From the NCBI GenBank assembly GCA_963741955.1, contig CAVUKB010000005.1:192001-256000 (forward strand): DNA of 64,000 nt, read 5' to 3'. The notes under the pieces are model-generated. The model saw only the letters and a program-made list of their open reading frames with translations. It was not told where the DNA came from and did no database searches. Shown piece after piece: positions 49,075 to 59,265 of this stretch. The translations under genes and the position numbers were made by a program. Position 1 is the first letter of the stretch. Every line of letters starts with the position of its first letter. Source of the DNA: an uncultured Acidobacteriota bacterium (GTDB lineage: Bacteria; Acidobacteriota; Thermoanaerobaculia; Gp7-AA8).

Positions 49075-50952
49075 TCAGCTCGAGGCGGCGGGAACGCGCG
49101 GCTCTTCAACCGTCGCCTGCTCTTTGTACTGAAGCTCGTAGAGGCGCCGATACAGGCCATTGATCCGCAGCAGCTCTTCGTGCGTGCCGCACTCCCGGAT
49201 CTCGCCGTGATGGAACACGAGGATGGCATCCGCGGAACGGATGGTCGAGAGACGGTGCGCGATCACGATCGACGTGCGACCTTCCATCAGCACCTCGATC
49301 CCCTGCTGGATCAGCCGTTCCGTCTCCGTATCGATGGACGAAGTCGCCTCGTCGAGAATCAGGACCGGCGGATCGAACGCGAGCGCCCTGGCGAACGAGA
49401 GAAGCTGCTTCTCGCCGACCGACAGTCCCGCTCCCCTCTCCCGCACCTCGGCGCCATACCCTTCCGGCAAGCGGGTGATGAAACGCTCCGCTTCGACCCT
49501 TCGAGCCGCGTTGCGCACCGCGTCGGCCCCGATCCGCGGATCCGAGAGGGCGATATTCTCCTCGATGGTTCCGCTGAAGAGGAAGAAGTCCTGCTGCACG
49601 ATGGCAAAGAGACGTCGAAGCGACTGGAGTGCGACGCGCCTGATGTCGATTCCGTTGATCAGGATCACTCCGCGCTGGATGTCGTAGAAACGGAGAAGGA
49701 GATTCGTGACGGTGGTCTTCCCCGCTCCGGTATGTCCGACGATCGCGATCCTCTGGCCGCGCCTGACGTCGAAAGAGACGTTCTTCAGCACCCATTCTTC
49801 GTCGTTGTAGGCGAACCAGACGTCGCGGAACTCGATGCTCTCGACGTGATCGAGTTCGATCGAGTCGGAGGCGTCGGTGATGCGGACGGGCGTGTCGACC
49901 AACCGGAAGATCCGTTCGCTCGCCGCCATCGCCGCCTGCAGGATGTTGTACTTCTCCGACAGATCCGAGATCGGCTCGTAGAAGCGTTGCGCGTACTGGA
50001 AGAACGCGATCAGTGCACCGATGGTCAGCGTGCCCTGAATGACCTTCCCACCGCCGTACCAGACGATCAGCGCGATTCCGACCGACTGGATCAGCTCCAC
50101 GGCCGGATAGAAGATCGAGTAGTAGAAGATCGATTCGATGTTCGCGTCGCGGTGGCGCGCGTTGAGGTGGTCGAACTTCTCCCCCTCTTCCCCTTCACGG
50201 TTGAAGAGCTGGACCACCGGCATCCCGGAGATGTGCTCCTGCAGAAACGCGTTGATCGCCGCGATCCGCGCCCGGACCTTCCGGTAGGTCTTGCGTGCAC
50301 CGCGTCGGAACCAGAGCGACACCACCACGATGAACGGCAGGATGCCGAACAGCACCAGCGCGAGCTGCCAGTTCATCCAGAAGAGGACGGCGACGATGCC
50401 GACGAGCACGAAGACGTCCCCGAAGATCGAGACGAACCCTGCGGTGAAAAGCTCGTTCAGTGCATCGACGTCGGTGGTCACTCGGGTGATGAGCCTTCCC
50501 ACCGGATTGCGGTCGAAGTACTGCACATCCAGCTTCTGCAGGTGCCCGAAAATCTGTTTCCGCAAGTCGTACATTACGTACTGACCCATCAGATTCATCA
50601 GGATCATCTGTCCGTAGAGGATCACGAAGCCGCCGACGAGCGTGAGGAGGTAGATGCCCGCCGCGAAATCGATTCCGGTCAGCCGGTCGGGCGACAGGTC
50701 CCACGCATGAAGGAGGTTCGCGACCGCCGCCGTGAGCCCGTTCCGGACCTGCGAGCCGGGTGGCTGCACGAAGAGATCGACCCCGACTGCGATGATCGCC
50801 GGCCCCGCGATCTCCGTCAGAGACGAGAGGATCACCAGGAGCACGGAAAAGAACGCGCGCCATCGGTACGGACGGAGATACGTCGCGAGCCGCCGGATGA
50901 GCCGCGGGTCGAAGCTCCTCGCCGCTTCCTCCTCGTGGCGCTCGATCGTCAT
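49075..50952 (-). CDS. ABC exporter, fused permease/ATPase (degenerate signature)
   Basis: GHTGAGKT, LSVGEKQ, LDEATS, IAHRLS. Confidence 0.94.
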   Translation of the reverse strand: MTIERHEEEAARSFDPRLIRRLATYLRPYRWRAFFSVLLVILSSLTEIAGPAIIAVGVDLFVQPPGSQVRNGLTAAVANLLHAWDLSPDRLTGIDFAAGIYLLTLVGGFVILYGQMILMNLMGQYVMYDLRKQIFGHLQKLDVQYFDRNPVGRLITRVTTDVDALNELFTAGFVSIFGDVFVLVGIVAVLFWMNWQLALVLFGILPFIVVVSLWFRRGARKTYRKVRARIAAINAFLQEHISGMPVVQLFNREGEEGEKFDHLNARHRDANIESIFYYSIFYPAVELIQSVGIALIVWYGGGKVIQGTLTIGALIAFFQYAQRFYEPISDLSEKYNILQAAMAASERIFRLVDTPVRITDASDSIELDHVESIEFRDVWFAYNDEEWVLKNVSFDVRRGQRIAIVGHTGAGKTTVTNLLLRFYDIQRGVILINGIDIRRVALQSLRRLFAIVQQDFFLFSGTIEENIALSDPRIGADAVRNAARRVEAERFITRLPEGYGAEVRERGAGLSVGEKQLLSFARALAFDPPVLILDEATSSIDTETERLIQQGIEVLMEGRTSIVIAHRLSTIRSADAILVFHHGEIRECGTHEELLRINGLYRRLYELQYKEQATVEEPRVPAASS

Positions 50953-52688
50953 GCGATCTCCTCGATCTCTTCTTCCAGAGTCTGCCGCCGGTAGAGATCC
51001 GCATAGTAGCCGTCGATCTCCATCAGATCGTCGTGGGTTCCCCTTTCGACGATCTCGCCGCGGTCGAGGACGATGATCTCGTCCGCTTCCTTGACCGACG
51101 AGACGCGGTGGGAGACGACGAGCACCGTCCTCCCCTTCCGCAGCTGCGCGAGCGCGTGGAGAATCCGCTCCTCCGTCGCGGTATCCACCGCACTGAGGGC
51201 GTCATCGAGAATGAGAATGGTGGGATTGCGAAGGATCGCCCGGGCGATGGCGGTGCGCTGCTTCTGCCCTCCCGAAAGAGTGATTCCCCTCTCGCCGATC
51301 ACCGTCTCGAGCCCGTTCGGGAACGATCCGACGTCGTCGCTCAATCCGGCGAGCGTCGCAGCCTCTTCGGTCTCTTCCTCCGACGCGCCGGAGCGTCCGA
51401 AACGGATGTTCTCGGCGATCGACTCGGAGAAGAGGAACGTCTCCTGCGGCACGACTCCGATCATTCCGCGGAGGTGCGCCGCAGGGACACTCTCGATGGC
51501 GCACCCGTCGAGGAAGACCTTCCCCTTCGGCGGCTCCCATGTTCGCGTGATCAGCGAGAGGAGCGTCGACTTTCCGCTTCCGGTTCGCCCGACGATTCCG
51601 ACCGTCGATCCCGCACGAACATGGAGGTTGACGTTCCGGAGGACGTCGTGCGTTCCATAACTGAACGTGAGATCGCGAATCTCGATCTCCCCACGAGTCG
51701 GCAGATGCGGACATTCCGGACCGACGAACGCGGCCGCCGGAGAATGCTGCCAGATCTCGTCGAGACGCTTCATCGAAGCCATCCCGCGCTGAAAGAGGTT
51801 GATCACCCATCCGAGGGCGATCAGAGGCCACACCATCCGCCCGAGGTAGAACGTGAAGGCGACGAATGCTCCGATGGACATCGTGCCGGCGATCATCTGT
51901 CGCCCGCCGACGAAGAACACCACTACGAACATGACGCCGATCACCGTGTGGAGCAGAGGGTAGAAGAGTGCGGTGAGATGGATCAGCGAGCGGTTCCTCT
52001 CCACGTACTCCCGATTCATCCTCTTGAAGTTCTCGACCTCGTTCGACTCCTGGGTGAACGCCCGTACCACGCGGACTCCGGCGAGGTTCTCCTGCACCCG
52101 CGCGGAGATGTCGCCGAAGTAGTCCTGGACGCTCCGGAACGTCACATGGATCTTCTCGCCGAAGAACTTCGCCATACCGGCGACGACCGGGACGGCGATG
52201 GAGCAGAAGAGTGCGAGGCGCCGATCGATCCGCATCATCATCACGAATGCGCCGATCACGACCAGGAGAGAGGAGAAGGAGTGCATCACGGCCGGCCCGA
52301 CGAGCATTCGCACCGACGCGAGATCGTTCGTTGCGCGAGACATGAGATCTCCGGTGCGCTGTCCCTGGTAGAACGGCGCCGGAAGAGTCTGGAGGTGCGC
52401 GTAGAAGTCGTTGCGCATGTCGTATTCGATGCGCCGCGAGGTCCCGATCAGGATCCATCGCTGGAGATACAGGAAGATCCCCTGGATTGCCGAAGCGGCA
52501 ACGACCAGAAGAGCGTATTCGAGCATCGCCGAACGGCTGAAGCTGTGGGTGAGCTCGTCGATGCCGTTTCCGATGAGTATCGGTTTGACGAGGGAGAACG
52601 CAGCCGAGCCGACCACACAGAGACCGCCGGTGAAGAGCGCCAACCTGTGGCGGCTGAAGTAGCTGAGGAGTCTTCTTCCCGGAGTCAT
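50949..52688 (-). CDS. ABC exporter, fused permease/ATPase (heterodimer partner, MdlA/YheI-like)
   Basis: GRTGSGKS, LSGGQKQR, LDDALS, VSHR. Confidence 0.94.
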   Translation of the reverse strand: MTPGRRLLSYFSRHRLALFTGGLCVVGSAAFSLVKPILIGNGIDELTHSFSRSAMLEYALLVVAASAIQGIFLYLQRWILIGTSRRIEYDMRNDFYAHLQTLPAPFYQGQRTGDLMSRATNDLASVRMLVGPAVMHSFSSLLVVIGAFVMMMRIDRRLALFCSIAVPVVAGMAKFFGEKIHVTFRSVQDYFGDISARVQENLAGVRVVRAFTQESNEVENFKRMNREYVERNRSLIHLTALFYPLLHTVIGVMFVVVFFVGGRQMIAGTMSIGAFVAFTFYLGRMVWPLIALGWVINLFQRGMASMKRLDEIWQHSPAAAFVGPECPHLPTRGEIEIRDLTFSYGTHDVLRNVNLHVRAGSTVGIVGRTGSGKSTLLSLITRTWEPPKGKVFLDGCAIESVPAAHLRGMIGVVPQETFLFSESIAENIRFGRSGASEEETEEAATLAGLSDDVGSFPNGLETVIGERGITLSGGQKQRTAIARAILRNPTILILDDALSAVDTATEERILHALAQLRKGRTVLVVSHRVSSVKEADEIIVLDRGEIVERGTHDDLMEIDGYYADLYRRQTLEEEIEEIA

Positions 52689-52813: not shown

Positions 52814-53179
52814 TCATCCGCGCAGCGGAATCTTCCGAAGCTCCTGCAGCGTGATCCGCAGGACGCTCTCGAGAGTGAATCCCTTCGGAAATGCGTGGGG
52901 AACCCGGATTCCCGCTCCCATCATCTCCAGAAAATCGACCGGAGGTCTGCGTCGCGCCAGGGCGAGCAGAAGTTTGCGGGGGAGCTCTTCGCGATCGTGG
53001 ATCGACAGATGCAGCGGCTGAATATAGTAGCCGAAGTGCATGCTCTCGAGGGCCGGCCTTCCTGCAGCGTATTCCGGAAGTGTCACGTCCATCGAGAGCG
53101 AGCCCAGAATCCAGTTCTCGCGGCCGAATTCGCCTCGCCAGAACTCCTCCTCCTCGGACGTCAGTCTTTCGATGCGCAT
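52814..53179 (-). CDS. Hypothetical protein
   Basis: 121-aa ORF co-oriented with neighbours; protein-like composition. Confidence 0.6.
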   Translation of the reverse strand: MRIERLTSEEEEFWRGEFGRENWILGSLSMDVTLPEYAAGRPALESMHFGYYIQPLHLSIHDREELPRKLLLALARRRPPVDFLEMMGAGIRVPHAFPKGFTLESVLRITLQELRKIPLRG

Positions 53180-53216: not shown

Positions 53217-53486
53217 TCAGCGTTTGAGATTGCGGAGGCCGTCGACGATCTCGCGGAGCTTCGTCTCGTGAAACGCCATCAGCGCGTGTTGAAGCTCGGC
53301 CTCGTCGACACCGGAGAGATCTCCCTGATAGACCTTCTTCAGCGCGCCGCCGAGATAGACCTTCGTCTCCGCGCGCCAGGCCGGCCGATGGAAGAACTCC
53401 GTCTGGACGGTCAGCTTCTTGTCCGAGACGTCGATCGTATCGACGCGACCGGTCGGTGAGGATCCGGGAGGTTTCGGCTCATCCAC
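53217..53486 (-). CDS. Small hypothetical protein
   Basis: 89 aa; LTVQTEF...ETKVYLGG...FHE; TACCAT box 6 nt before GTG. Confidence 0.7.
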   Translation of the reverse strand: MDEPKPPGSSPTGRVDTIDVSDKKLTVQTEFFHRPAWRAETKVYLGGALKKVYQGDLSGVDEAELQHALMAFHETKLREIVDGLRNLKR

Positions 53487-53504
53487 TCGGCTATGGTAGC
53501 CGAA

Positions 53505-54695
53505 TCAACCTCGTCCGACCAGATCGCGGTGAACGCTCCGCCTGCATTTGGCCTCCGCGCGCGCCTCGATCTGCCGGACGCGCTCGCGGGAGAGGTTGAG
53601 AATCTCGCCGATGTCGCGCAGGGTGAGCTCCTCGTCCTGGAGGATGCCGTAGCGGAGCTGCAGGACGGTGCGTTCTTCGAGATCGAGCGCCGCCACCGCG
53701 GTCTGGACCGCGCCGTGCTGTTTCAGCTCCTCGAGCGTGTCGGCCCGTTCGGGATCGATCGCCTGAACCCAGTCGGGAGGGAGGTCGCCGAGCGCGACCC
53801 AGAAGGTCCAGGAAGCCTTCGAATTCGGGTTGGTGAAGAGGAGGAGGTGCGAGAGCTCCGTCTCACTGATTCGCAGCGTCTCGCACATCTGCCTGATCGC
53901 GGAGTCGAGGAGCTGCGCGACCTCTTCCACCGGACGGTTGAGGAACTCGCCGATCCGTCGGATCTTCATCGGGACGTTGTCACTCACTCCATGCCGCAAG
54001 GTCAGAACCAGCCGCTCCTTCGGCGAGAGCTTGGCGATCCGGTCGAGGAGGTCTTCCCGCGCCGATTGCTCTTCCAGCTCGTCTTCGGCCGACGGTACGG
54101 TGGTCTGCTCGATGAGGTCCGAAAGTTCGGTGTGGCTCTCGTTGTCGAGCTCGGAACTGAGAGAGAAATTCTCCGCGTTCACGTGGAGAAGGGTCTGCAC
54201 GTCGCGGAGCGGGACGCCGAGCTCCGCCGCCAGCTCGTCGGGCGTGGGGATGCGATTCTGCTCGGTCATGGCCGTCGCCATCGCCTTCGAGAGGCGATAC
54301 ATCAGGTTCGCCCGTTTCGGGGGGAGCCGGAACGCGCCGCCCTGCTCGGAAAGGGCGTGAAGAATCGCCTGACGGATCCACCAGACCGCGTAGGTGATGA
54401 ACTTGACGTTCTTGTCGGGATCGAATTTCTTCGCCGCGTGGATCAGCCCGATGTTTCCCTCGTTGATGAGATCGAGAAAGAGAACGTGGGCGTTGCGGAA
54501 GCGTTTGGCGTACGAGACGACGAAGCGAAGGTTCGCCTTGACCAGCTGTTCGAGCGCCTTGCTGTCGTTCTCCTGAACCCGTCGCCCGAGCTCTTTCTCT
54601 TCGTCGGGGTTCAGCCGCGGAATCCGTGCGATCTCCTGCAGATACTGGTTGAGGAGATCGTACGAATCGTCATAGCGATCGTCTTTTCGAGACAT
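53505..54695 (-). CDS. Sigma-70 family (RpoD/RpoS-like) sigma factor with two region-4 domains
   Basis: YLQEI, ANLRFVV, DLINEGNIGL, TYAVWWIRQ, TLRDIG...SRERVRQIE. Confidence 0.92.
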   Translation of the reverse strand: MSRKDDRYDDSYDLLNQYLQEIARIPRLNPDEEKELGRRVQENDSKALEQLVKANLRFVVSYAKRFRNAHVLFLDLINEGNIGLIHAAKKFDPDKNVKFITYAVWWIRQAILHALSEQGGAFRLPPKRANLMYRLSKAMATAMTEQNRIPTPDELAAELGVPLRDVQTLLHVNAENFSLSSELDNESHTELSDLIEQTTVPSAEDELEEQSAREDLLDRIAKLSPKERLVLTLRHGVSDNVPMKIRRIGEFLNRPVEEVAQLLDSAIRQMCETLRISETELSHLLLFTNPNSKASWTFWVALGDLPPDWVQAIDPERADTLEELKQHGAVQTAVAALDLEERTVLQLRYGILQDEELTLRDIGEILNLSRERVRQIEARAEAKCRRSVHRDLVGRG

Positions 54696-54848
54696 GGGCC
54701 CTCATTTAACGGGAGTGTCCAGATTGTATAACGAGGAACCAAGTCGGCGAGTCGCAATTTGAAATCCAGACTGCAAGGTTGAGAATCTCAACGGCGGACG
54801 GCGGACGGCGGAGCAGGCGGCGGATCGCCGTCCGCCCCGCCGCTGAAA

Positions 54849-55607
54849 CTAACGTGGGTTATCGGGACGAACCATCGTAACATGCTGCGTGACGTCGTTC
54901 GTTACGCTGACGAACGCCCAAAAACGCAGGCCGGGAGTCACTGGCTCAACCGAGATCCTCACGGTCTCTGCGCTTCGAAGGTGCGGATAGATCGCCGCAA
55001 CGTCGATCATCCGAGCCTGCGGAGGTCGGTACGCCGAATTCGTGCTCAACGTGACCGGCACCTCCGCGAGCAGCTCGTCCGTAATCATGTCATAGAAACG
55101 GACCCGCACATCGCTGCGGAGACGGATGTCGTAGTCGTAGATCCGGAGAGTGGAACGAAAGGCCGGACTGGTGGGAACGTTGAGGAGTCCCAGCGTGCGC
55201 GTAAACGTATCGCCCTGTCGCACGATGGGTAGCTCGGTTCCCCAAGTTTCCGCCGGCCTTGAAACGTCCTGGATCCGCGCGTCGAGAGACACCTCATCGC
55301 TACCCGGATTTTCGATGTAGACAAATGCGCCCAACCCGGCCGCGTCGGAAAGATTGAGTTCAAACGTCGAATGGGGCTGAGCCGGTGGCGTCGGACACTC
55401 GATGTTGCAATCGAAAGGCTCTGATACCTTCACGTAGGCGTCGCCGTCGTTCCGTCCGACGATGACGAGTTTCCATTCCGATCCATAGCCTCCCGGCAGC
55501 AGCCCCGAAAAGACGGTTGGAATAATGACCCGCTCCGGTGCAGCTGGTTGCGACCATGCCGAGACTGCAGTGGCGCAAAGGACCAGACCGATGGCAATGC
55601 GTCTCAC
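54849..55607 (-). CDS. Secreted hypothetical protein
   Basis: Signal peptide; GGAGGAG RBS; PGGYGSEW, GTELPIVR, WAFVSVTND. Confidence 0.75.
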   Translation of the reverse strand: MRRIAIGLVLCATAVSAWSQPAAPERVIIPTVFSGLLPGGYGSEWKLVIVGRNDGDAYVKVSEPFDCNIECPTPPAQPHSTFELNLSDAAGLGAFVYIENPGSDEVSLDARIQDVSRPAETWGTELPIVRQGDTFTRTLGLLNVPTSPAFRSTLRIYDYDIRLRSDVRVRFYDMITDELLAEVPVTLSTNSAYRPPQARMIDVAAIYPHLRSAETVRISVEPVTPGLRFWAFVSVTNDVTQHVTMVRPDNPR

Positions 55608-56669
55608 GGTTTGACTCCTCCAGACCTACGGGCAGTCGTAGCTATTCGCAATCGGCGCTTGTCAGCTCCCTGCTGCAACCCACCCACGGTGATCGCCTGC
55701 GTCGAGGCCGCTGGCGAATACCAGGTCGCATCGTCGTTGTAATTCCCAGCAGCCACGACAACCGTCATTCCATAGTTCGTCACCAGCGAATCGACCGCTG
55801 CGGTGACTGAAGGCACATATAGGTAGGTCCAGCTGCAGTTCACCACGCGGGCTGAGATTCCCCTGTTCGGATCCATCGGAATCCAATTCAGCGCGGTAAT
55901 GATCACCGATACAGACTGCTGATTCCCCGAACAACCGAATGCCCGGGCATCCACCACTGTCGCGCTCTTCGCCACTCCAAATGTCGATCCGGCGACAACA
56001 CCCGCGACGGCAGTTCCGTGGCTCGCTCCGGGAGTCGTGACGGTGCCTGCAGTTCGCTCCCAGCATTGACCGTAATTCAGGAAGTTGACCTCCGGAATAT
56101 TCATCGCGAGCAGAGTGGACTTCAGGCTCGGAGCCGGGTCGACGCGGCCATCCAGGTCGGGATGGTTTGACAGCACGCCGGTGTCTACAACGTAGATTCG
56201 AACCCCGCTCCGGTCGAGCAATACGAGTAAGCCCCATTTGTCCTCGGTGCGCCGATACTCGCCTGGTCGATCCTGTCCAGGCCCCACATCGTGGCCGGCG
56301 TACCCGGCGCGATAGGTCCGGATGGAAGAGTCTGGGTGGTAGCGAGGCTCACGAGCCCATCCTCCTCGACAGACTTGACCCATGTGTGTTTCGAGATCGC
56401 CACTGCCTGCGCTTCTGACATTCGAATCACGAAACCATCGAACAGGTTGGGCCACTCGGTGATCACTGACCCGCCGAAGGTCTTCGCCAGCTTGTCAGCA
56501 GCAGAATGGAGCGATAGTCCTTTCGGAAGAGGAGAATTCAACGTGACGATATACCGTCCAGGGATCGGGGCGGATACATGATAGAGCGATCCGGAAGCGA
56601 AGATGTGGAGAGAGAAGAGAGAGAGAGAGAGACTACAGAGACCATAATGAACCTGCTGCGATGAAACAT
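55604..56669 (-). pseudogene. Disrupted S8 subtilase (proteinase K/aqualysin-like) with I9 propeptide
   Basis: Pieces in three frames: RBS-ATG 56669; YIVTL...WGLDRIDQ; YVVDTGV, HGTAVAG, VAAGN; no GTSMA serine motif. Confidence 0.85.
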
Positions 56670-56879
56670 CTGCGACCTCCTGTGTCGGGATGCCGCCTCC
56701 TCCGCTTGCCGAGAATATACTCGGACTTGACCGGAAACACAAGGAGTAACTAAACGTCTGTTCACTGTCGGCTTCAGCGTGCGCAATTGGGTCATGAAGG
56801 TCACCGAAGCGAGGAGGCGATTTTCGCCGTCCACCATTCTCGGCGAGTTCACCTCGTATAACTCGAAGCGGCGTTCAAG

Positions 56880-57260
56880 CTACTTTCCCGCCTTCTGCAC
56901 GCCGCGCGGGCCGACCCTCACCAGAGCCTGCCGGCGATCGAGGCCGCAGCGCCGGTCGAGCATCTCCTGGCGGATGAAGGTCATGATCTCGTCGATCTCC
57001 ATCTCGAACGCGCGCATCTGGCGGAGGAGGTTGAGGATCACTTCCACTCCGGCGAGGTTCACGCCGAGATCGCGGGTCAGTCGGAGGATGAGCTCGAGCT
57101 GCTTGATCTCATCGGGGCCGTAGAGTCGGGTGTTCCCCTGAGTACGATGGGGGTTGATCAGACCCTCCCTCTCGTACAGACGGAGAGTCTGGGGGTGAAT
57201 GTTGTAGCGCTCCGCGATGATGGAGATCATCACGAAGCCTTCGCGTTTTCTTCGAACCAT
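56880..57260 (-). CDS. hspR: MerR-family heat-shock repressor
   Basis: IHPQTLRLYEREGL, RTQGNTRLY, LGVNLAG; lies downstream of dnaK. Confidence 0.88.
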   Translation of the reverse strand: MVRRKREGFVMISIIAERYNIHPQTLRLYEREGLINPHRTQGNTRLYGPDEIKQLELILRLTRDLGVNLAGVEVILNLLRQMRAFEMEIDEIMTFIRQEMLDRRCGLDRRQALVRVGPRGVQKAGK

Positions 57261-57304: not shown

Positions 57305-59206
57305 TTACTTTTCTTCGTCGACGACTTCGGCTTCGATCACGTCGTCTTCCGGTTTCTTCCCGCCGCTCTCCGCTCCGCCGGCTTCCGGGCCTCCGCCCTG
57401 CTGCTGTCCGGTCTGCGAGTACATCGTTTCGGCGAGCTTGTGCGACGCCTTCTGCAGCGCGTCGGTCGCCCGGCGGATCTCGTCGACACCGCCCTGCTCC
57501 ATCGCTTTCCGCGCGTCGCTGATCGCCGCTTCGAGAGTGCTGACATCCGAGCCGGAGAGCTTCTCCCGGTTCTCGCTCAGCATCTTGTCGATGTTGTAGA
57601 TCAGCGAGTCGAGATTGTTCTTCGCCTCGACTTCCTCGCGCCGGCGTTTGTCTTCGTCGGCGTGCGCCTCGGCGTCGTGGATGAGATTGTCGACTTCGCC
57701 CTTCGACAGACCGGAGGAGCTGGTGATGGTGATCTTCTGCTCCTTCCCGGTGCCGAGGTCCTTCGCCGAGACGTTCATGATGCCGTTGGCGTCGATGTCG
57801 AACGTCACCTCGATCTGCGGCACCCCGCGAGGAGCGGGCATGATTCCGCTGAGCTGGAAGTTGCCGAGCAGCTTGTTGTGCGCGGCGATGTCGCGCTCAC
57901 CCTGGTAGACCTTGATGTCGACCGTCGACTGGTTGTCGGCCGCAGTGGAGAAGGTCTCCGACTTGCGGGTCGGGATGGTGGTGTTCCGTTCGATCAGCTT
58001 CGTCATCACGCCGCCGAGGGTCTCGATGCCGAGCGAGAGCGGAGTGACGTCGAGGAGAAGAACATCCTTGACCTCACCTCCGAGAACGCCGCCCTGGATC
58101 GCGGCGCCGACGGCCACGACTTCGTCCGGGTTGACGCCCTTGTGGGGCTCCTTCCCGAAGTACTCGGTGACCACGCGCTGGACCATCGGGATGCGGGTCG
58201 AGCCGCCGACGAGAACGACCTCGTCGATGTCCTTCTGCTGCAGCCCGGCGTCGGAGAGTGCCTGCTTCACCGGGCCCATGGTGCGCTGAATGATGTCGCC
58301 GACCAACTGCTCGAACTTCGCCCGGGTGAGGGTCATGTTCAGGTGCTTCGGTCCCGACTGATCCGCGGTGATGAACGGAAGGTTGATGTCGGTCGACATG
58401 GTCGAGGAGAGCTCGATCTTCGCCTTCTCGGCCGCTTCCTTGAGGCGCTGGAGCGCCATCTTGTCGCTGGAGAGATCGATACCCTGGTCTTTCTTGTACT
58501 CGTCGATGATCCAGTCGATCAGGCGCTGGTCGACGTTGTCGCCGCCGAGGTGCGTGTCGCCGTTGGTCGACTTGACCTCGACCACGCCCTCGCCGACTTC
58601 GAGGATGGAGATGTCGAACGTCCCGCCGCCGAAATCGTACACGGCGATGGTCTCGTCCTTCTTGCGATCGAGACCGTACGCGAGTGCTGCGGCAGTCGGT
58701 TCGTTGACCAGTCGCTCGACCTTCAGCCCGGCGATCTCACCGGCGTCCTTCGTGGCCTGGCGCTGTGAGTCGTTGAAGTAGGCCGGAACGGTGATGACTG
58801 CCCGCTCGACCTTCTCGCCGAGATAATCTTCGGCGGCCTGCCGGAGCTTCTGAAGGATCATGGCGGAGATCTCGGGCGGCGAGAACATCTTGTCGTCGAT
58901 CTCCACGCGTGCGTCCCCGTTCGGTGCCTTCGACACCTTGTAGGGGACCATCTTCATCTCTTCGTTGACCTCTTCGTAGCGGCGACCCATGAAGCGCTTG
59001 ATGGAAAAGATGGTGCGCTCGGGGTTGGTGATGGCCTGACGCTTGGCGACCTGACCGACCAGCCGCTCGCCATTCTTGGCAAATGCGACCACGGACGGGG
59101 TGATGCGGCTCCCCTCCGCGTTCAGAATGACCGTCGGCTGATTCCCCTCCATGACCGCGACGACGGAGTTCGTCGTCCCGAGGTCGATTCCGATGATCTT
59201 GCTCAT
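57305..59206 (-). CDS. dnaK: Chaperone DnaK (Hsp70)
   Basis: [34 protein letters not shown]. Confidence 0.99.
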
Positions 59207-59244
59207 TCTGTCGTCTCCTTGATTGTTCTCAACTCCGGACCGCT

Positions 59245-59265
59245 ATTGAGTCTACACGAATCAAC
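59245..59265. promoter_or_regulatory. HAIR-like HspR operator
   Basis: ATTGAGT-N7-AATCAAC versus consensus CTTGAGT-N7-ACTCAAG, ~40 bp upstream of dnaK. Confidence 0.7.

Follow-up and report, generated by a model that had tools for sequence, protein, structure and literature searches.

The sigma factor gene described here lies on the minus strand at positions 53505..54695 of a 64,000-nucleotide stretch of DNA (the window) from an uncultured Acidobacteriota bacterium of the class Thermoanaerobaculia (assembly GCA_963741955.1, contig CAVUKB010000005.1, positions 192,001 to 256,000). Its 396-residue product is an RpoD-like alternative sigma factor in which region 4 is duplicated in tandem, giving two sigma4 domains, sigma4a and sigma4b, within one chain. 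The sigma4 domain normally grips the beta-flap of RNA polymerase and reads the −35 element of the promoter, and the flap contact fixes the spacing between the −10 and −35 elements. We see about an even chance that this group-2-like sigma factor has divided these tasks between its two copies, with sigma4a docking on the flap and sigma4b reading DNA from a displaced position.

The list of open reading frames (ORFs) and the Pfam matches define the architecture of the protein, all parts of which are encoded on the minus strand. Region 1.2 (residues 13-44, 54564..54659; PF00140, 40.9 bits) is followed by region 2 (residues 51-118, 54342..54545; PF04542, 68.6 bits) and region 3 (residues 133-205, 54081..54299; PF04539, 55.2 bits), and these matches, together with that to region 4 (PF04545, 83.1 bits), pass all the cut-offs of the Sigma-70 families. 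Sigma4a (residues 201-274, 53874..54095) is the first repeat unit and occupies the ancestral position after region 3.2. A structured connector (residues 275-314, 53754..53873), supported by predicted helices and conserved columns, contains a helix resembling H5 of sigma4, a conserved TNPN motif and an aromatic helix. The second repeat unit, sigma4b (residues 315-396, 53508..53753), contains a canonical helix-turn-helix (HTH), TLRDIG...SRERVRQIE. The first-pass annotation had placed two region-4 domains after regions 1.2, 2 and 3 and had expected two matches from a scan with Sigma70_r4. Two were obtained when the segments were scanned separately: 29.0 bits (E 7.8e-7) for sigma4a within residues 205-290 and 58.5 bits (E 4.5e-16) for sigma4b within residues 291-396. 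Both exceed the curated Pfam cut-off of 24.1 bits, and the first segment therefore does qualify as a sigma4 HTH.

The two copies align without a gap, with P201 paired with P315 and 23 of 62 residues identical (E 2e-9). Therefore, the repeat unit comprises the end part of region 3.2 together with sigma4, and the copies are offset by 114 residues. The first recognition helix ends at residue 274 and the second Pfam match starts at residue 334. The intervening spacer of about 59 residues is close in length to the linker of about 55 residues that had been noted before, and it is predicted to be helical and not loose. The recognition helix of sigma4b forms the end of the protein without an H5 after it, and most family members stop within a few residues of this point. 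The aligned family sequences have no conserved methionine in the connector, and thus no sign of an internal start that would produce free sigma4b. A 412-residue ORF on the opposite strand (53493-54731, plus strand) was taken to be a shadow frame of this gene, which has a GC content of 62-65%.

The conservation of the two copies is complementary. Column entropies were calculated from an alignment of 29 family sequences, comprising the window protein, proteins from 20 loci of relatives and eight database proteins; region 2 is the most conserved part of the protein, with a mean entropy of 0.16 bits. Helix H1 has a mean column entropy of 1.00 bits in sigma4a and 1.66 bits in sigma4b, and H2, which is conserved as KERLVLTLRHG in sigma4a, has 0.27 and 0.69 bits, respectively. 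For H3 the values are 1.46 bits in sigma4a and 0.26 bits in sigma4b, and for the recognition helix H4 they are 1.96 and 0.18 bits. The H5-like helix following sigma4a, ETELSHLLLF (residues 278-287, 0.92 bits), has no counterpart after sigma4b. It aligns with the C-terminal tail helix of RpoD (KKLRPFLD) and with the tail (ARALASYLN) of an orthologous sigma factor with a single sigma4 domain, which is described below. Residues E280, L281, P290, W299 and L302 of the connector are invariant.

The recognition helix of sigma4b, RERVRQIE, differs from that of the RpoD encoded in the same genome, RERIRQIE, by one residue (V for I), whereas sigma4a has VEEVAQLL at this position and has lost the three arginines of the RERxRQ motif. 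We take the arginine, glutamate and glutamine residues of RERVRQIE to be equivalent to R584, E585, R586, R588 and Q589 of Escherichia coli sigma70, which contact the −35 element. Entropies and residue comparison agree with the first-pass annotation that the first recognition helix is degenerate and the second canonical. Within the sigma4a recognition helix, positions V259, L263, A266, C271 and L274 are conserved and those between them vary, which we read as the buried face of a helix that remains folded while its exposed face has been free to change. According to a review of T4 transcription, sigma factors contact the beta-flap by residues in or near H1, H2 and H5, and H5 is normally embedded in the hook of the flap (PMC2988021). 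When the entropies are compared with this assignment, the flap-contacting elements are better kept in sigma4a and the DNA-reading elements in sigma4b.

The high variability of the sigma4a recognition helix is also what would be expected if sigma4a were a decaying pseudo-domain without a function of its own, and in the full-length family representative P0123 Pfam finds only one r4 stretch and leaves sigma4a undetected. However, the length, reading frame and buried positions of sigma4a are kept in 29 of 29 aligned sequences from more than 15 genera, and no member examined has lost the domain. Its H2, the H5-like helix and the connector motifs are clearly constrained. A neutral relic is therefore highly improbable.

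Based on the domain arrangement and the conservation pattern, the following mechanism can be proposed. The form with two sigma4 domains may go back to the ancestor shared by one order of Thermoanaerobaculia, in which the end of region 3.2 and sigma4 would have been duplicated in tandem within the sigma gene of a dnaK-hspR heat-shock operon. The duplicated form would have replaced the form with a single sigma4, and the copies would then have split the two jobs of the domain. Because sigma4a is at the exact ancestral distance from sigma3 and has kept H2 and the H5-like helix, it may dock on the flap tip of the polymerase. Sigma4a would then occupy the normal place of sigma4, and the reading position of sigma4b, which keeps an RpoD-type HTH without H5, would thus be displaced, so that it may recognise a TTGACA-like element away from the normal −35 site. 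The structured, aromatic-rich connector would hold both copies as one rigid body. The first-pass annotation had suggested that the extra domain could act as a decoy, be autoinhibitory or change the preferred promoter spacing; the conservation pattern favours a division of labour, which is closest to the last of these, a changed promoter geometry.

A different arrangement, in which sigma4b grips the flap and reads the normal −35 element, would make sigma4a and the connector an accessory domain inserted after region 3.2 and ahead of the working sigma4. This pseudo-sigma4 platform might serve a regulator, perhaps the product of one of two small downstream genes, orf89 and orf121, or upstream DNA or another part of the polymerase. 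Such an arrangement agrees with the relationship of the copies to the ancestral domain, since the lone sigma4 of the single-sigma4 orthologs shares 31-36 of 58-61 residues with sigma4b (53-59% identity) and 19-22 of 55 residues with sigma4a (35-40%). The Pfam score of sigma4b is also the higher of the two, its H2 is still fairly conserved, and the sigma4a recognition helix varies freely on its exposed side, which would be expected without a nucleic-acid partner. Lineage-specific insertions are common in sigma factors. Nevertheless, conservation of H1, H2 and the H5-like helix is in each case higher on the sigma4a side than in sigma4b, and sigma4a, located without a gap at the ancestral distance, would presumably leave the RNA exit channel at the usual sigma4 site and clash sterically with sigma4b. 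Sigma4b furthermore has no helix resembling H5, which PMC2988021 names along with H1 and H2 as contacting the flap. We regard the accessory platform as the main alternative, less probable than the division of labour.

Structure prediction is consistent with a compact arrangement of the duplicated part. The full-length AlphaFold2 model, calculated from a 29-sequence alignment, had a mean predicted local distance difference test score (pLDDT) of 75.9 and a predicted template modelling score (pTM) of 0.47; the region 3.2 loop was of low confidence and residues 210-390 were confident (block means 79-94). When residues 205-396, referred to here as the module, were modelled alone, the mean pLDDT reached 86.0 with a pTM of 0.80 and no segment below 50, and the five models ranged from 81.9 to 86.0. 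The connector helices are located at module residues 74-83, 92-97, 111-122 and 125-131, and the block pLDDT over the first two of them is 82-96. Sigma4a, the connector and sigma4b are thus predicted to form one compact body and not two domains on a flexible tether. A fold search with the full model returned ordinary sigma factors with a TM of about 0.3. A VIA search of the module against 48,161 representative chains of the Protein Data Bank (PDB) identified sigma4 domains, the best with a Z of 11.2 and a root-mean-square deviation of 2.5 Å over 73 residues. No listed chain of the 48,161 aligned over more than 78 residues, which is approximately one sigma4, and none spanned both copies.

If the module is rigid, it could set a new promoter geometry, in which the regulon of this sigma factor is told apart from that of RpoD by the spacing of the −35 element or the helical face on which it lies, and not by its sequence; we consider this more specific proposal rather doubtful. 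Several observations weigh against the division of labour and the displaced reading position. H1 of sigma4a, one of the elements expected to contact the flap, is only moderately conserved (1.00 bits). The alignment used for modelling the module is shallow, with 23 sequences from one family. A genome-wide scan for TTGACn-N(8-45)-TAnnnT detected no second spacing class and only the canonical peak at 16-18 bp (21 pairs at 16 bp, 87 at 17 bp and 30 at 18 bp, with a background of about 4-11), in a test that is underpowered for a small regulon. Upstream of the sigma gene itself there is no conserved −35 element at any spacing, a result that is uninformative on sigma4b.

Bumps in the spacer scan at 21, 29 and 37 bp (15, 14 and 16 pairs) were rejected as largely due to multi-copy repeats. 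The genome contains at least two families of identical repeats with six copies each, probably insertion sequences (for example at C4:655010, C5:442855, C5:613721, C6:488092, C7:1255088), and a triple repeat spaced by 72 bp at C7:941281-941425; the repeats gave false peaks in the scan.

Comparison of upstream regions identified a −10-like box, TACAAT, at 54723..54728 on the minus strand, 27 nucleotides before the ATG of the sigma gene. Of 23 further upstream regions compared, 20 have a counterpart with the sequence TAGAAT, TACAAT or TAAAAT. The conserved form of the box in the family (L005-L034) is G-n-T-G-TAGAAT, and it precedes the ATG by only 12-16 nucleotides at 13 of the 21 loci that have it. 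No Shine-Dalgarno-like sequence was found at the sigma gene starts with the conserved box. This suggests that the sigma gene is transcribed from a −10-only promoter with a very short leader.

The protein is not the housekeeping sigma factor of its bearer. The source genome (5.44 Mb in 16 contigs, 99.1% complete) contains 23 matches to Sigma70_r2. When it was searched with RpoD_Cterm, a gene on contig C4 with an open frame of 638 residues reached 411.9 bits, above the cut-off of 354, and is the true RpoD, whereas the gene with two sigma4 domains reached 182.3 bits. The search revealed no third RpoD-like gene in the genome, as the only further row was the gene's own sigma4b. In hmmscan searches the protein remained below the cut-offs of the RpoD models TIGR02393 (225 against 354 bits) and NF004208 (218.4 against 555 bits), the RpoS model TIGR02394 (226 against 378.7 bits), the RpoH model TIGR02392 (163.6 against 323.1 bits) and the SigB, SigF and SigG models. 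Its similarity to MzaA, the sigma factor of the MZA anti-phage system, is confined to the sigma core, both with NF041931 (190 against 800 bits) and in an MzaA-type match from PADLOC (114.5 bits).

Group 2 sigma factors are defined, in a recent preprint, by the presence of region 1.2, the absence of region 1.1 and the existence of a separate primary sigma factor (bioRxiv 10.64898/2026.10.08.757525). The window protein agrees with this architecture, because it has region 1.2, begins 12 residues ahead of it, gives no Pfam match to Sigma70_r1_1 at E<=1, and has an RpoD encoded elsewhere in the genome. It departs from the single region 4 expected of the group by having two Sigma70_r4 domains. Like RpoS and the cyanobacterial sigma factors of the SigB-E type, it combines regions 1.2, 2, 3 and 4, lacks region 1.1, occurs beside a true RpoD and has, in sigma4b, an RpoD-like recognition helix; in NCBIfam it comes closest to the cyanobacterial RpoD/SigA subfamily (258.8 bits) and to RpoS (226 bits). 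It differs from them in falling below every curated cut-off and in possessing a second sigma4 and a structured connector. Judged by sequence, the protein is an additional RpoD-like alternative sigma factor, group-2-like by architecture. The earlier label of a group 1/2 sigma factor is thus appropriate in the second sense and not in that of a primary sigma factor, given the respective RpoD_Cterm scores of 411.9 and 182 bits.

The WWIRQAI core of region 2.4 is common to RpoD and the window protein, whereas the two differ in region 3.0 and in the residues immediately following that core. The same differences are also present in the single-sigma4 orthologs. Therefore, the specificity for the −10 element probably differs from that of RpoD, independently of the duplication.

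The duplicated architecture is widespread among close relatives of the bacterium. A word-indexed search of 5.8 billion proteins, in which 8000 candidates were scored and the best 120 listed, returned 119 other proteins of 389-398 residues with 69-75% identity and 96-100% query coverage; where a source was named, these clusters originated from metagenome-assembled genomes (MAGs) of Thermoanaerobaculia. We also searched 150 other Thermoanaerobaculia genomes with residues 205-396, counting as a whole module a match over query positions of about 1-187. The whole module was found in 34 of the 35 genomes from the family of the window (f1) and in the single genome of a sister family of the same order (f2). 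Among the 114 genomes from the other 15 families of the class there was none, and the matches there corresponded to sigma4b alone or to shorter sigma factors. The only f1 genome without a module match is G027, 9,163 bases of which were left out of the search. The f1 tallies include one unpublished genome, G131, without which the module count is 33 of 34. Each f1 genome has one module match. An assembly artefact was accordingly rejected, as the architecture is carried by the 119 related clusters and by 35 of 36 sampled genomes of the order; the possibility raised in the first-pass annotation that the duplication might be unique to this assembly is thereby removed.

An exhaustive HMMER search with residues 205-396 against 1.84 billion representatives (one per 50% cluster) gave 6972 matches at E<=0.001, 30 at 1e-10 and only seven at 1e-30. 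Three of these seven span both sigma4 copies, one of them in a full-length protein of 397 residues, and the rest are fragments. A contig scan for SRERVRQIE, a pattern that is common beyond the family, yielded three whole-module loci among the 80 matches listed, all from uncultured MAGs; no cultured carrier was among these 80 matches. Other proteins with several r4 stretches that were scanned lack the N-terminal part of a sigma factor or are long repeat arrays, and lie outside the family. Examples of arrays of sigma4-like repeats unrelated to the family are P0134 (1692 residues, four Sigma70_r4 stretches by Pfam) and P0141 (589 residues, seven stretches); P0138 and P0143 also belong to these proteins, and HMMER matches up to ten stretches per protein. 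Some matches of 270-400 residues have region 3 followed by two or three r4 stretches, or the region 3 and region 4 pair twice; lacking an N-terminus, these may represent fragments or loops in the assembly. Literature searches brought up no publication in which a sigma factor carries tandem sigma4 domains; PMC11119718 goes no further than to define, for cyanobacterial sigma factors, a class in which essential domains are duplicated.

The origin of the gene is indicated by its neighbourhood. Other families of the class encode a sigma factor of 284-287 residues with a single sigma4 (loci L016-L019), whose identity to the window protein over residues 1-270 is 50-52%; for the protein from L016, this alignment contains no gap. 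In all four loci, dnaK and an hspR-like gene of the MerR family are directly upstream. The same pair is present beside the two-sigma4 gene in six of 24 loci of relatives (L006, L020, L022, L023, L024 and, inverted, L021), and in G022, the genome of the sister family, the ORF of hspR shares 29 nucleotides with that of the sigma gene. In the window, dnaK, which encodes Hsp70 (57305..59206, minus strand; PF00012, 890.8 bits), is followed by the gene for an hspR-like MerR-family regulator (56880..57260, minus strand), which is 63% identical to the G022 gene overlapping the sigma gene, by a 2.2-kb insert and by the sigma gene.

The insert consists of remnants of an S8 peptidase gene and a 252-residue gene without a known family. 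The S8 (subtilase) gene looks broken (55604-56742, minus strand): overlapping ORFs in different frames, 56185-56742 (185 residues) and 55604-56455 (283 residues), keep the pro-region and the Asp and His motifs, and the frame stops before the Ser motif. The 252-residue ORF, which encodes a signal peptide (54849-55607), begins where the S8 frame ends.

The single-sigma4 sigma factor resembles the window protein in position, in its dnaK-hspR context and in the identity of about 50-52% over residues 1-270; it differs in having one sigma4 with an H5 tail, without the 114-residue repeat offset, the connector or the linked orf89 and orf121. Because the dnaK-hspR context is common to both, residues 1-270 align without a gap, and RpoD and the two-sigma4 gene are the sole RpoD-like sigma genes of the genome, we conclude that the two-sigma4 gene is the ortholog of the single-sigma4 sigma gene of the heat-shock operon. 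We also conclude that it has replaced that form, since each f1 genome has one module match and the window's genome has no single-sigma4 paralog. A motif search further revealed two HAIR-like inverted repeats at 59218..59265 (strand not assigned), within 60 nucleotides upstream of dnaK, which overlap the sequence TTGACC-N17-TAGACT. Each has three mismatches to CTTGAGT-N7-ACTCAAG, and no other site in the window matches with three mismatches or fewer; shuffled sequences average 1.5 matches, and the count is thus not above chance. The position of the repeats, and not their number, fits an HspR operator and suggests control by HspR. Gene order alone suggests a link of the sigma factor to heat shock or stress.

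Downstream of the sigma gene are the two small ORFs reported in the first-pass annotation, both on the minus strand. The first, orf89 (53217..53486), starts 18 nucleotides past the sigma stop codon and encodes a conserved small protein with a mean column identity of 67%; the second, orf121 (52814..53179), starts 37 nucleotides past orf89 and encodes a highly conserved small protein with a mean column identity of 76%. By their conservation, both are real genes. Neither has a match in Pfam, NCBIfam, PHROGs or PADLOC, and profile searches of the PDB gave E values of only 0.92 and 1.2. In a protein atlas, orf89 was related only to uncharacterised Acidobacteriota clusters, and orf121 had weak leads (0.89-0.91). 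In the class sample, including G131, orf89 was found in 35 of 35 f1 genomes and orf121 in 34 of 35; both are present in the one f2 genome and in none of the 114 genomes of other families.

Distances between the sigma gene and orf89 were determined by comparing coordinates by hand in the 36 genomes that have both genes. They are within 600 nucleotides in 18 genomes from 14 genera, including G031, where the order is orf89-orf121-sigma. The distance is 1.2 kb in one genome and 3.7-222 kb on the same contig in six, and in 11 genomes the two are on different contigs. One of these 11 is G139, in which the ends of two contigs each hold a part of orf121, so that the genes may be neighbours in inverted orientation. 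In the genus g8, the sigma gene and the small genes are adjacent in none of 11 genomes. The shared distribution is weak evidence of a connection, because it reflects one evolutionary event, and the adjacency kept through rearrangements is better evidence for a functional link of the sigma factor with orf89 and orf121. The suggestion that the small proteins are partners of the sigma factor is thus borne out in distribution and frequent adjacency only, and binding remains a candidate interaction. Prediction of a complex of the sigma factor with orf89, run without controls, scored 0.00 in both runs and is evidence neither way.

The small genes would be of particular interest if sigma4a and the connector formed a built-in switch, autoinhibitory or acting as a decoy, in which either sigma4b or the surface that binds the flap stays masked and is freed by a signal or by a partner, for instance orf89 or orf121; C-terminal extensions of some extracytoplasmic function sigma factors work in this way. 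In the predicted compact fold of the module, surfaces may be buried. Both small genes have the same order-level distribution as the sigma factor and are often near it, and no recognisable anti-sigma gene was found among the neighbours scanned. Tight coupling is not required, however, since in all 11 genomes of g8 the small genes are either 23-222 kb distant or placed on another contig; the co-distribution, being one event, does not provide independent support. We consider the switch improbable, and the division of labour between the copies remains our preferred explanation.

In many relatives, an ABC-2 transporter and a thioredoxin-like gene are located between orf89 and orf121. At locus L031 (1523-3620), and likewise at L026-L029 and L032-L034, the block comprises genes for an ABC ATPase, an ABC-2-type permease and a membrane-anchored thioredoxin-like protein; in g8 a distance of 23-222 kb separates this block from the sigma gene, or the two are on different contigs. 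In the window, two tandem genes for MsbA-like ABC exporters with fused membrane and ATPase domains (625 and 579 residues; 49075-52688, minus strand) follow orf121 on the same strand after a gap of 125 nucleotides. The 12 neighbouring ORFs that were scanned belong to the PAP2, Mg-chelatase-like, ABC exporter, S8 peptidase, Hsp70, superoxide dismutase (SOD) or GDSL lipase families, or to no family; none of them is a Cas12f or TnpB gene.

Core docking and promoter reading are divided between separate modules in gp55/gp33 of phage T4 and in SigO-RsoA of Bacillus subtilis, and T4 gp33 occupies the flap without reading the −35 element. Those modules are separate polypeptides and not sigma4 duplicates, whereas the window sigma factor has two sigma4 paralogs in one chain. 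In the extracytoplasmic function (ECF) sigma factors ECF41, ECF42 and ECF44, a C-terminal extension after sigma4 modulates activity in the same chain. These extensions are of SnoaL-like, tetratricopeptide-repeat and Cys-rich types, and not sigma4, and those sigma factors lack regions 1.2 and 3. The nearest published case found is the dCas12f-associated sigmaE (PDB 9N9Q), which, according to its description, has a C-terminal domain that is absent from its paralogs and binds the RuvC domain of dCas12f (bioRxiv 10.1101/2025.06.10.658880). Like the window protein it has an extra domain, which follows its sigma4 and changes the targeting of the holoenzyme. It is described there as an ECF sigma factor whose extra domain binds dCas12f, whereas the extra unit of the window protein is a canonical DNA-reading sigma4; the window protein has regions 1.2 and 3 and is therefore not of ECF architecture, which consists of sigma2 and sigma4 only. 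Chain 9n9q_C was among the fold matches of the module (Z 9.9), and the match covered its ordinary sigma4 (chain residues 120-193), not its extra domain.

The conservation pattern suggests that selection has kept two sigma4 copies over the whole history of a bacterial order, with each retaining a different half of the job. Tandem-sigma4 architectures can escape annotation, as the single r4 stretch found by Pfam in P0123 demonstrates. If the division of labour is correct, a duplicated sigma domain has been split into a core-docking and a DNA-reading copy within one chain. Nature would then have carried out a separation-of-function experiment on sigma4, and the family could open a way to promoters of unusual geometry and serve as a model for designing orthogonal sigma factors.

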